From Patescibacteria group bacterium (GTDB lineage: Bacteria; Patescibacteriota; Minisyncoccia; Phycocordibacterales; JBAYGS01): DNA of 49,351 nt. The stretch's first letter is position 1; every line of letters begins with the position of its first letter. The notes below the pieces were generated by a model. It was not told where the DNA came from, ran no database searches, and saw only the letters and a list, made by a program, of their open reading frames with translations. A program made the position numbers and the translations under genes. Of this stretch, positions 24,189 to 26,379 are shown piece after piece. The stretch spans positions 7,099 through 56,449 of the forward strand of contig JBBTSQ010000025.1 in the NCBI GenBank assembly GCA_038078755.1, written 5' to 3'.

Positions 24189-24273
24189 ACTGACTCCTTT
24201 CGCCATATAGGCTTTGGATTGTGAAGAACGCCGGCTTGGGGTGTACCCAATATCAACCGTATGTTCTATGTGT

Positions 24274-24302
24274 ATTATAGCATATCTGAATATAAAATGC
24301 AA
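24274..24302 (-). promoter_or_regulatory. promoter TTGCAT-17-TATAAT
   Basis: The minus strand reads TTGCATtttatattcagatatgcTATAAT. It is preceded by the palindrome AAGAATATGACTCTATAGAGCCATATTCTT. Confidence 0.55.
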
Positions 24303-24351
24303 GTATTTAATGCAAAAAGATAAGAATATGGCTCTATAGAGTCATATTCTA

Positions 24352-24390
24352 AGACAACAGCTCAACCAGGGACTGGTTGAGCTGTTGTCT
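24352..24390. repeat. perfect 17-bp hairpin
   Basis: AGACAACAGCTCAACCA-gggac-TGGTTGAGCTGTTGTCT. Confidence 0.8.
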
Positions 24391-24403: not shown

Positions 24404-24569
24404 GTGCTGGGACCCAGGTGGCCGAAGACGGCCGGATCGGTCACGACTCTTGCCTCGTCGTCACTCGGCAAGGTCTCGACCCCAGCTCGCGGTTTCGCTT
24501 ACTAGCGAAACATCGCTCCGCTTTTCGAACCTGGGTCGCGAGCAAAGTAGTTTGCTCGCTTCCCAGCAC
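24404..24569 (+). other. tRNA-Phe-derived mirror element (tRNA-like multi-helix segment)
   Basis: The left end is an exact 16-nt copy of the tRNA-Phe 3' end. The right end is the inverted T-loop/acceptor part, interrupted by hairpin GCGAGCAAAGTAGTTTGCTCGC and preceded by hairpin GTTTCGCT..AGCGAAAC. Confidence 0.6.
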
Positions 24570-24608
24570 AAAATACAAAATCCGCCGATAAGGCGGATTT
24601 TGTATTTT
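24570..24608. terminator. perfect 17-bp bidirectional hairpin abutting the tRNA-Phe 3' end
   Basis: AAAATACAAAATCCGCC-gataa-GGCGGATTTTGTATTTT. Confidence 0.75.
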
Positions 24609-24609
24609 G

Positions 24610-24682
24610 TGCTGGGACCCAGGTTCGAACTGGGGACCCTTCCCTCTTCAGGGGAATGCTCTACCAACTGAGCTATCCCAGC
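24610..24682 (-). tRNA. tRNA-Phe (anticodon GAA)
   Basis: GCTGGGATAGCTCAGTTGGTAGAGCATTCCCCTGAAGAGGGAAGGGTCCCCAGTTCGAACCTGGGTCCCAGCA. Confidence 0.9.
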
Positions 24683-25585: not shown

Positions 25586-25711
25586 TTGATACCTCCGGTT
25601 TTGGGTTTAGGAATGTACTTACTTGAACCACAATAGTCCAAGATAGATTCCATTAAGATCATAGCATAAAGAAACAATTCTGTCCACCCAAAATTTAGCT
25701 TTATACATTTG

Positions 25712-25783
25712 TGCCCTCGGCCAGAGTTGCACTGACATTAGACCCTTAGGACGGGCCGGTTCTATCTGTTGAACTACGAGGGC
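25712..25783 (-). tRNA. atypical tRNA-Arg (anticodon CCU) candidate
   Basis: GCCCTCGTAGTTCAACAGATAGAACCGGCCCGTCCTAAGGGTCTAATGTCAGTGCAACTCTGGCCGAGGGCA. All four stems are good, but the D-loop lacks GG and the T-loop reads TGCAACT. Confidence 0.5.
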
Positions 25784-26105: not shown

Positions 26106-26162
26106 AAATGTTTACTTATATAATTTAATGAATAAGCTGGAATAGTATAGCATACATACTAT

Positions 26163-26285
26163 CTGTGCGGGTACCGGGAATCGACTATTACATAGTCAGG
26201 TGCTTTTCTCGTTTCGCAGACGAAACATAGAAAAGCCTTCCGATTCCCGCCGGAAGCAAAGCAGTTTGCTTCCTCACTCACACAG
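26163..26285 (+). other. tRNA-Gly-derived mirror element, homologous in design to 24404-24569
   Basis: Left arm CTGTGCGGGTACCGGGAATCG resembles the reverse complement of the tRNA-Gly 3' end. Right arm is TCCGATTCCCGCC + hairpin GGAAGCAAAGCAGTTTGCTTCC + TCACTCACACAG. Internal hairpin GTTTCG-caga-CGAAAC. Confidence 0.6.
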
Positions 26286-26308
26286 TCATTCGCTTCGCTC
26301 ATTACCTG

Positions 26309-26379
26309 TGCGAGTGGCGGGAATCGGACCCGCGCCCGATGCTTGGGAAGCACCAGTACTACCACTATACTACACTCGC
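26309..26379 (-). tRNA. tRNA-Gly (anticodon CCC)
   Basis: GCGAGTGTAGTATAGTGGTAGTACTGGTGCTTCCCAAGCATCGGGCGCGGGTCCGATTCCCGCCACTCGCA. Confidence 0.85.

Follow-up and report, generated by a model that had tools for sequence, protein, structure and literature searches.

A 49,351-nt stretch of DNA from a Patescibacteria group bacterium (contig JBBTSQ010000025.1; hereafter the window, numbered from its first letter) contains, immediately beyond the 3' end of the gene for tRNA-Phe, a hairpin-rich element at 24404-24569 that we propose, with a probability of about 0.68, to be one copy of a family of miniature (~130-210 nt) insertion cassettes in Patescibacteria, which hold no open reading frame (ORF) and bring a replacement end to the gene that receives them. 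By class the element would be a miniature, non-autonomous integrative cassette, and the family of 130-210-nt, gene-less, hairpin-rich insertions in Patescibacteria, or the candidate phyla radiation (CPR), is apparently undescribed. The window itself is cellular genome DNA (it encodes valyl-tRNA synthetase, LepA and nine tRNAs), and identical proteins and contigs assign it to groundwater Patescibacteria (Hainich aquifer metagenomes; NCBI GCA_964364845.1). An initial annotation had noticed here a mirrored partial copy of tRNA-Phe with two inserted hairpins; that observation is real and more general than was proposed at the time.

The element behind tRNA-Phe

A repeat search confirmed that the last 16 nt of tRNA-Phe (copy C) recur as an exact direct repeat, GTGCTGGGACCCAGGT, at the far end of the element (copy A; coordinates of all parts in Table 1). 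The same part of the tRNA is present between the repeats in inverted orientation as two arms, B1 and B2, which are separated by a hairpin (HP2). This hairpin breaks the inverted copy no more than 2 nt from the T-stem/acceptor junction, where the initial annotation had placed it at the junction exactly, and the second hairpin that it reported, GTTTCGCT-tact-AGCGAAAC, forms the inner part of a larger HP1 domain. Arm B1 spans the start point of the repeat within the tRNA, and equivalent arms at other loci match their own local target; B2 could pair, in predicted folds, either with copy A or with tRNA-Phe itself. The helices drawn earlier (GCTGGGA/TCCCAGC, GGCCG/CGGCC and CTTGCC/GGCAAG) all lie within the minimum-free-energy fold of the Phe element, for which z = -7.5. 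The 17-bp hairpin between element and tRNA (T1) is present as stated, its extent requiring revision, as it is the centre of a larger perfect palindrome with 26-nt arms (24561-24586 and 24592-24617) that extends into the tRNA acceptor strand. The outer arm of T1 is U-rich on both strands with the T run inside the stem, hence a simple terminator scanner did not list it. In the relative L024 (labels of this form denote genome or metagenome loci) the stems of T1 are identical and the loop alone differs, and T1-like hairpins accompany His, Arg and Gly copies of other genomes.

The recurrence of the design at tRNA-Gly, also claimed initially, is real, with a direct copy and both hairpins in place. 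Both hairpin motif patterns exceed shuffles, and the covariance model described below scores the two window elements at 93 bits and 53 bits (Gly); the remaining seven window tRNAs have no such copies by repeat comparison or covariance model. As had been expected, the minus-strand tRNA-Phe was the only tRNA that ARAGORN and Rfam called at the Phe locus, the plus strand of the element being left uncalled, and searches for tRNA and tmRNA, relaxed to E<=10, left both strands of 24404-24569 and of 26160-26285 without a call.

A covarying family without genes

Searches with the two-hairpin pattern identified 32 loci in one-genome-per-species contigs (~185,000 species genomes), nearly all of them Patescibacteria metagenome-assembled genomes (MAGs) from Kaiser-, Nomura-, Moran-, Taylor- and Yonathbacteria, Paceibacterota and Saccharibacteria, and 44 further loci in metagenomes. 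Two scans of 2.9 million viral contigs with different motifs returned zero matches, and a phage or satellite origin was therefore dropped. A covariance model (R1) then accounts for 103 matches, 85 of them non-redundant, in Patescibacteria genomes and metagenomes, with up to four copies per locus; most loci are MAG or metagenome contigs, and the E-values of the model are rough. Two loci, L004 and L019, come from MAGs labelled Burkholderiales and Bdellovibrionales, respectively, the L019 contig having a CPR-like dprA-topA neighbourhood, which points either to mis-binned contigs or to an element that reaches beyond Patescibacteria.

Across the alignment 97.3% of cells are paired and double changes occur in 20 of 23 pairs, values reached by 0 of 500 shuffles, and pairing falls to ~40% in slid controls. 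In HP2 all nine pairs covary and 99% of cells are paired, and diverged copies retain its loop with the whole stem replaced. The HP1 domain (helices 1-3) shows double changes in 11 of 14 pairs around an invariant GTTTCG/CGAAAC stem, with a conserved 2-nt bulge and internal loop. The conserved core extends well beyond the two hairpins and reads, in plus orientation, P2/P3, HP1 domain, variable arm and HP2, with the consensus GGTCAC(A/G)(A/G)ATAA-[variable stem]-CTCG(C/T)CGTC(G/A)CTCG-[stem]-TTCCGCGACC for P2/P3 and GCC-tc-GCG / GTTTCGNN-loop-NNCGAAAC / at-CGC-tcc-GGC for the HP1 domain. Elements measure 130-210 nt, with 135-205 nt between the repeats, and hold no ORF. No loop-loop (kissing) covariation between HP1 and HP2 was seen by eye in the alignment, and a K-turn or group II domain V was rejected for the HP1 domain on misfitting loop sizes and conserved bases.

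Rfam 15, run at gathering and permissive thresholds over the window and 18 related loci, reported tRNAs, a single tmRNA and a single group I intron, all of them outside the elements, the sub-threshold matches being hairpin noise (miRNA models) on the T1 palindrome. The literature searched gave no account of such an element, in line with the initial remark that no described class has this architecture.

Gene 3' ends as targets

For 43 of the 85 copies the 3' end of a convergent tRNA is no more than 130 nt away, with 14 amino-acid specificities represented, and 13 further copies are second to fourth array units behind a tRNA (seven copies are cut off by locus ends). With 56 of 85 non-redundant copies behind a convergent tRNA, empty sites in relatives and covarying helices, the suggestion that the Phe locus bears the footprint of a small element directed to tRNA 3' ends is supported, and the proposed covariance-model scan of other genomes for tRNA-adjoining matches proved positive. 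The implied specificity for tRNAs is not: the same core stands at the 3' ends of topA (seven copies) and rpsI, for ribosomal protein S9 (six copies), where the stop codon lies 0-8 nt from HP2 and the arms copy those genes. A few copies adjoin 3' ends of no assigned gene.

Copy A, beyond the core and in direct orientation, is short at the two tRNAs (16 nt for Phe, 24 nt for Gly) and at rpsI (10-17 nt) and longer at topA (52-64 nt). Arm B, between HP1 and HP2, is shorter, inverted and placed across the start of the repeat, and it matches the local target in each case (tRNA-Phe, Gly, Lys, topA, rpsI and others); its B1 part comprises 10-14 nt, of which 2-5 nt fall upstream of the repeat. At tRNA targets the repeat starts in the T-loop, so that A and B consist of T-stem and acceptor sequence and produce an acceptor-like helix and the look of a mirror tRNA. 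The arms at topA and rpsI consist of coding sequence and have no tRNA likeness. As the arms derive from the target, the acceptor-like and T-like stems are a by-product and do not represent a purpose-built mimic of a tRNA. In L012, L013, L014, L018 and L020 a T run follows HP2.

Several loci depart from the usual arrangement. At L009:3830-4085 and L026:4207-4490 the element adjoins the 3' end of a non-coding stretch of ~200-280 nt with the conserved end ...GGAGGTTCTAAC(A/T)TCGTGTAG..CTCCAC, no Rfam match and no convincing ORF, which may be an unannotated RNA gene serving as target. At L025:3576-3804 (minus) a group I intron (Rfam, 58.9 bits) stands beside the element, with a copy of the element arm between the two; the adjacent tRNA is probably split by this intron and may for that reason have escaped ARAGORN, so that the tRNA association is undercounted. 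At L010:2267-2543 a tRNA-Glu lies between two elements, the usual one behind its 3' end and another that faces the start of the gene, which is rare, its HP2-side arm pairing with the opening bases at the 5' end of the tRNA. At L015:7038-7219 two elements stand tail to tail over one shared terminator-like palindrome, one being the 'target' of the other.

Foreign and displaced gene ends

The direction of the exchange can be read at topA, where copies A and C each encode a complete C terminus with its own stop codon. At L016 and L029 the two repeat copies are only 70-76% identical: in L016, 15 of 57 nt differ, 13 of these at third codon positions and with one amino-acid change, and in L029, 16 of 54 nt differ, 11 at third positions. 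Because the differences fall mostly at third positions, we regard A and C as orthologous ends that have been under coding constraint in different lineages and not as a duplication made by insertion. The outer copy A of L029 encodes KKECPNHRPDKIKK*, the same peptide with which its closest TopA relatives (85-91% identical) end, ...CSKKECPNHRPDK(L/M)K(K/Q), and the current end of the gene, ...SSKACPNHNPHKLKQ*, resembles another lineage, e.g. P0011 (P0001-P0120 being TopA proteins of Moranbacteria and relatives). On these sequence relationships the topA end now in use in L029 proves to be foreign and the outer copy native. Relatives L085, L086 and L087 have no element after topA with the covariance model run with filters off, and relative L088 has one 8 nt past the topA stop together with a truncated second unit. 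In gene direction the inserted unit at topA would comprise the foreign end with its stop codon, HP2, arm B, the HP1 domain and P2/P3, with the native end pushed downstream, and we therefore read the element as an inserted, horizontally moving cassette. A nine-block identity matrix showed no split into one all-A and one all-C clade. Tandem Repeats Finder gave nothing on the topA loci, since the flanking repeats are gene-end duplications and not arrays.

By analogy with the topA loci, copy C of tRNA-Phe may have been supplied by the insertion and copy A would be the displaced native 3' end; the two Phe 16-mers are identical and cannot be told apart, so that the assignment of 24404-24419 as the displaced end is by analogy only. 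Repeated insertion is indicated at other loci. L020 holds two exact tandem units; L024, L029, L043 and L088 hold nested or truncated older units; and L063:11963-12520, behind tRNA-Lys, holds three 100%-identical 152-nt units, each opening with the last 15 nt of the tRNA, and a fourth, older unit of another subtype, an array that is either the outcome of a very recent series of insertions or of amplification, or an artefact of assembly.

The window and L024 are near-identical from copy A, starting exactly at GCTGGGA, through the terminator to the tRNA, and the flanks beyond A are unalignable. Differences inside the element are compensatory or in loops (GGCCG/CGGCC to GGTCG/CGACC), the P3 stem is wholly replaced with pairing kept, and the orthologous Gly copy of L024 has an A-T in place of a G-C pair in HP1. 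This near-identity could reflect purifying selection that maintains a functional structure, or a recent gain from a common mobile pool. At these tRNAs the deeper relative L043 (joined at the Gly locus by L083) also bears elements, and their arms fit its own, different tRNA sequences.

Among the TopA proteins examined, two types of C terminus, ...CPNHRPDK... and ...CPNHNPHK..., occur side by side without regard to overall identity. Part of this mosaicism may stem from end replacement by the element, but L087 is of the NPHK type without an element.

Clustering of neighbouring ORFs at the 32 loci (8-kb) yielded no recurrent integrase, transposase, recombinase or reverse transcriptase; the recurrent neighbour families are housekeeping only (topA, dprA, the rpoA-rplQ-rplM-rpsI operon, mur and ruvA).

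Strand preference of the fold

The gene-sense strand is the more stable one in 35 of 36 copies, by a mean of -7.5 kcal/mol (Wilcoxon p ~1e-10), and the details of the core point the same way. In the P2 helix GGTCACAGA/TCCGCGACC the A.C mismatches of the plus strand correspond to G.U wobbles on the sense strand, with neighbouring pairs that covary, and at the P3 apex tandem U.C/C.U mismatches correspond to tandem G.A/A.G pairs, so that the P2/P3 domain carries both features in its sense-strand form. Shuffle z-scores are similar on both strands, and the energy asymmetry may be partly compositional. G.T and tandem G.A are the most stable mismatches in DNA too, and HP1 and HP2, being nearly pure Watson-Crick (10 G.T against 9 A.C among 859 cells), are uninformative on strand. 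A promoter search over both strands of the element found none, and the Phe copy of the window is boxed in by strong hairpins on either side. The folded form is either a single DNA strand or a read-through RNA.

In the predicted fold of the whole sense transcript, copy A is the partner of the tRNA's 5' acceptor strand, and arm B that of its 3' part. On this thermodynamic prediction alone A and C would be formally interchangeable, in an intron-like topology.

Relation to described elements

Closest in logic are the islands and prophages that insert at tRNA genes (P4-type tyrosine integrases), which likewise insert toward the 3' end of a gene, be it a tRNA gene (the crossover then falling in the T-loop) or a protein gene, carry a replacement 3' end, leave the displaced end as a direct repeat and form tandem or nested insertions. 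The element shares with them direct repeats of a gene 3' end and a restored target gene, the repeats being those of 16 nt (Phe), 24 nt (Gly) and 52-64 nt (topA). Such islands, however, measure 5-100 kb and encode an integrase, whereas here the elements are 130-210 nt long, the 135-205 nt between the repeats hold no integrase gene or any ORF, viral contigs lack the element, and the core adds covarying hairpins and an extra inverted target copy. The folded single strands of CTXphi attP(+) and integron attC resemble it in that two inverted segments of one strand pair into a target-like or site-like duplex, that mismatches or extrahelical bases mark the strand choice, and that they can be small and ORF-less, as in empty integron cassettes; unlike them, the element has no XerCD/dif-like or attC core sequence and its arms vary with the target; the likeness is a mechanistic analogy only. 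An attC site (RYYYAAC ... GTTRRRY) was considered for HP1 and rejected, as T-C-G at positions 4-6 of GTTTCGN...NCGAAAC violates RRR and the partner site fails likewise.

MITEs (miniature transposable elements with inverted repeats), Correia, RPE, REP/REPIN and BOX elements resemble the element in their small size, lack of coding sequence, multiple copies and wealth of hairpins; they often occur at gene ends, and some provide terminators. In a MITE family, however, all copies share the same terminal inverted repeats, and the target duplication is short and of constant length, whereas each copy of the element takes its 'inverted repeats' from its own target and duplicates 15-64 nt of a gene 3' end; assignment as a MITE was rejected on these two points, its small size, non-coding nature and copy number agreeing. 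Homing introns and inteins similarly spread into conserved genes through flanking gene homology with gene function kept, and in Rhs/CdiA C-terminal modules an incoming 3' end displaces the old end downstream; in the element, unlike these, no splicing, endonuclease or toxin/immunity cargo is evident and the gene is kept intact by duplication.

Elements that use guides (IS200/IS605 tetranucleotides, the IS110 bridge RNA, the internal guide sequence of group I and the exon-binding sites of group II introns) have, like B1, an internal target-complementary segment over the insertion point, but here there is no transposase or recombinase gene and no match to a bridge-RNA or intron model, and by this mechanistic analogy B1 is a candidate guide only. 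Compared with IS200/IS605-derived palindrome-associated elements (PATE) and with REP/RAYT, hairpins and strand asymmetry are present, but the insertion brings a long repeated block, the targets share no constant word, and the flanking loci showed no Y1 transposase gene. The resemblance at tRNA targets to tRNA-like RNAs (tmRNA, YrlA/Y RNA, viral tRNA-like structures, mascRNA), in the form of coaxial acceptor-like and T-like helices with a TTCGAA loop, comes without any model match and is gone at topA and rpsI; it is hence inherited from the target.

A proposed mechanism and its alternatives

In the explanation that we favor, a cassette would sit inside or at the 3' end of a conserved gene, entering tRNAs in the T-loop, with the order on the gene strand being gene body, replacement end C (the last 15-60 nt with the stop codon or discriminator), usually a terminator hairpin, arm B (the reverse complement of the target over the insertion point), the core (HP2, HP1, P2/P3) and the displaced end A. 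What the machinery recognizes would be the folded gene-sense single strand of the core, as DNA or as read-through RNA, and we infer that spread between genomes proceeds via recombination within the duplicated block. This could take place in either of two ways. In the one, an enzyme acting in trans on the folded core would carry out site-specific recombination with crossover at the boundary of P2 and the block, arm B (10-14 nt complementary to the target over that boundary) aligning the target. In the other, homologous recombination after DNA uptake would use the gene body and copy A as two homology arms, and the presence of conserved sequence on both sides of the cassette would then account for the preference for highly conserved genes and for the native copy A in L029. 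A bolder and, in our judgment, tentative form of the proposal, which we would not bet on, treats the element as a new class of mobile cassette, guided by nucleic acid and free of protein genes, in which the folded gene-sense single strand base-pairs through arm B with the target over the insertion point and the three-helix core either recruits a host or trans-acting enzyme or is itself catalytic; the spare gene end inserted with it would keep essential genes intact and would provide a second homology arm for interspecies spread by DNA uptake.

Several observations count against insertion as the explanation. No enzyme, circular junction or excision event was observed among the loci examined. 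The near-identical strains represented by Hainich groundwater contigs all carry the Phe and Gly copies, and these copies are common to the relatives L024, L043 and L083, so that movement over short periods is rare. Purifying selection for a host function could equally account for the near-identical cores of the window and L024, and the near-pure Watson-Crick pairing of HP1 and HP2 is silent on whether DNA or RNA is the folded form. A closing helix between A and B is clear in only ~1/3 of copies in a crude test, the mean perfect complementary run being 6.2 nt against 5.1 nt in shuffles, a modest excess, and we do not claim this helix to be universal. Discovery by exact motifs biases the census to conserved copies, and tandem arrays in MAGs could in principle be assembly artefacts.

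One alternative, which we consider unlikely and which is compatible with insertion, is that of a structured RNA serving the host from the 3' trailer or 3' untranslated region of tRNA, topA and rpsI transcripts, from which read-through and processing would free it. The role of the A:B helix would then be simply to seal and shield the RNA or, at tRNAs, to attract RNase P, RNase Z or the CCA-adding enzyme, and a useful module would spread through the insertions. RNAs linked to tRNAs or derived from 3' untranslated regions are an established category, and the better folding of the sense strand in 35 of the 36 copies, its wobble G.U and tandem G.A pairs at conserved positions, both typical of RNA, the strong covariation with conserved unpaired nucleotides, and a core that changes little and in compensatory fashion between the window and L024 as the flanks become unalignable would all agree with such a role. 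However, the core lies downstream of a terminator-like hairpin (T1, or HP2 with a U run) in most loci and no promoter was found; G.U is no commoner than A.C in HP1 and HP2, which is unusual for RNA; the distribution is sporadic (the exact motif in 32 of ~185,000 species genomes), with varying copy number per locus and many truncated copies; and there is no Rfam family. The initial annotation had also proposed a different RNA, a tRNA-like gene on the plus strand convergent with its cognate tRNA, which now appears highly improbable: the 7-bp acceptor-like stem, a T-like stem and TTCGAA can indeed be drawn, but tRNA and tmRNA searches call nothing, the tRNA's own strand is the more stable one in all but one of 36 copies, the plus strand has A.C and U.C mismatches at conserved positions, no promoter was found and two strong hairpins lie directly upstream, and the topA and rpsI copies have no tRNA-like arms.

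Two further explanations were considered. Direct repeats of a tRNA 3' end that start in the T-loop, restored gene 3' ends and tandem copies would suit the leftover attL/attR sites of a large integrative element (a prophage or an integrative and conjugative element) with deleted interior, its core being former attP arm DNA, and T-loop repeats with restored gene ends are the classic picture of tyrosine-integrase islands. Yet the same 90-nt covarying core stands at 85 sites in many lineages, always at full miniature size, never beside integrase or phage genes and never in viral contigs; independent deletions would not converge on one structure, and the covariation shows selection on the hairpins, which leaves this origin largely refuted and very unlikely. 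Chance or a decaying local inverted duplication of tRNA-Phe, the null offered with the initial annotation, draws on the local repeats and on nothing else, and is excluded by a family of 85 covarying copies at unrelated targets, to the point that we assign it next to no probability.

Further features of the window

The Gly copy is reduced and lacks the P2/P3 domain (Table 1). Just outside Phe copy A two back-to-back palindromes with 14-nt and 18-nt arms, at 24323-24350 and 24352-24390, are probably terminators that box in the Phe element together with T1; they are absent in L024, where an older element remnant, a second tRNA-end copy and a different terminator are found instead. A 12-mer, TATTATAGCATA / TAGTATAGCATA, lies upstream of both window elements, at 24273-24284 and 26143-26154. 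We rejected it as a part of the element; its minus-strand reading is of TGCTATAAT type, and we take it for extended -10 promoters; the genes that follow these candidate promoters on the minus strand are a 207-aa ORF and a glutaredoxin. Between the Phe and Gly tRNAs, ARAGORN calls a tRNA-Arg(CCT) at 25711-25783 (minus), as it does in L024, L043 and L053; the Rfam tRNA model does not report it even at E<=10, and its T-loop region reads GTGCAAC in place of the usual TTCGA type. With the calls in relatives, it has the look of a tRNA that is atypical but conserved.

Table 1. Parts of the two window elements and their target tRNAs.
Feature	Positions	Strand	Remarks
Copy A (Phe)	24404-24419	minus	exact 16-nt direct copy of tRNA-Phe 3' end
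Small extra hairpin	24420-24433		GGCCG-aaga-CGGCC; Phe lineage only
P2/P3 domain	24439-24481	minus	GGTCAC...GACC around hairpin with variable stem and conserved apex (CTCGTCGTCACTCG)
HP1 domain	24484-24522	minus	AGC-tc-GCG / GTTTCGCT-tact-AGCGAAAC / at-CGC-tcc-GCT; inner hairpin 24492-24511
B1	24524-24537		inverted copy of T-loop and T-stem 3' strand (TTCGAACCTGGGTC)
HP2	24538-24559	minus	GCGAGCAAA-gtag-TTTGCTCGC; GCAAA/TTTGC stem and G-N-A-G loop (sense: C-U-N-C), the family signature
B2	24560-24569		inverted copy of tRNA acceptor 3' strand and discriminator (TTCCCAGCAC)
T1	24570-24608		17-bp hairpin with U-rich tail on either strand; putative bidirectional terminator
Copy C (Phe)	24609-24624		last 16 nt of tRNA-Phe; direct repeat with copy A
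tRNA-Phe(GAA)	24609-24682	minus	target gene; ARAGORN; Rfam 68.7 bits
Second (Gly) copy	26160-26285	minus	reduced, without P2/P3 domain; covariance model 53 bits
Gly copy A	26160-26183		direct copy, 83% identical
Gly small hairpin	26184-26196		
Gly HP1 domain	26202-26236		hairpin GTTTCG-caga-CGAAAC at 26211-26226
Gly B1	26238-26251		
Gly HP2	26252-26273		GGAAGCAAA-gcag-TTTGCTTCC; compensatory changes relative to Phe HP2
Gly B2	26274-26285		
Gly spacer	26286-26307		22 nt before tRNA
tRNA-Gly(CCC)	26308-26379	minus	target of second copy; ARAGORN, Rfam

Implications

If the proposal is correct, the streamlined genomes of the CPR hold previously unrecognised selfish or semi-domesticated DNA, a gene-less insertion that is tolerated in essential, conserved genes (tRNAs, topA and the gene for ribosomal protein S9) because a replacement gene end is supplied. 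It would explain stray partial tRNA copies and mirror-tRNA structures that could otherwise be mis-annotated as pseudo-tRNAs or novel RNAs, and the insertions could act as natural markers in strain tracking. The target-matched arm beside a conserved core makes a guide-directed mechanism testable which, if true, would be of interest to genome engineers, and the mosaic topA C termini would constitute direct evidence of horizontal exchange of gene ends among CPR lineages.

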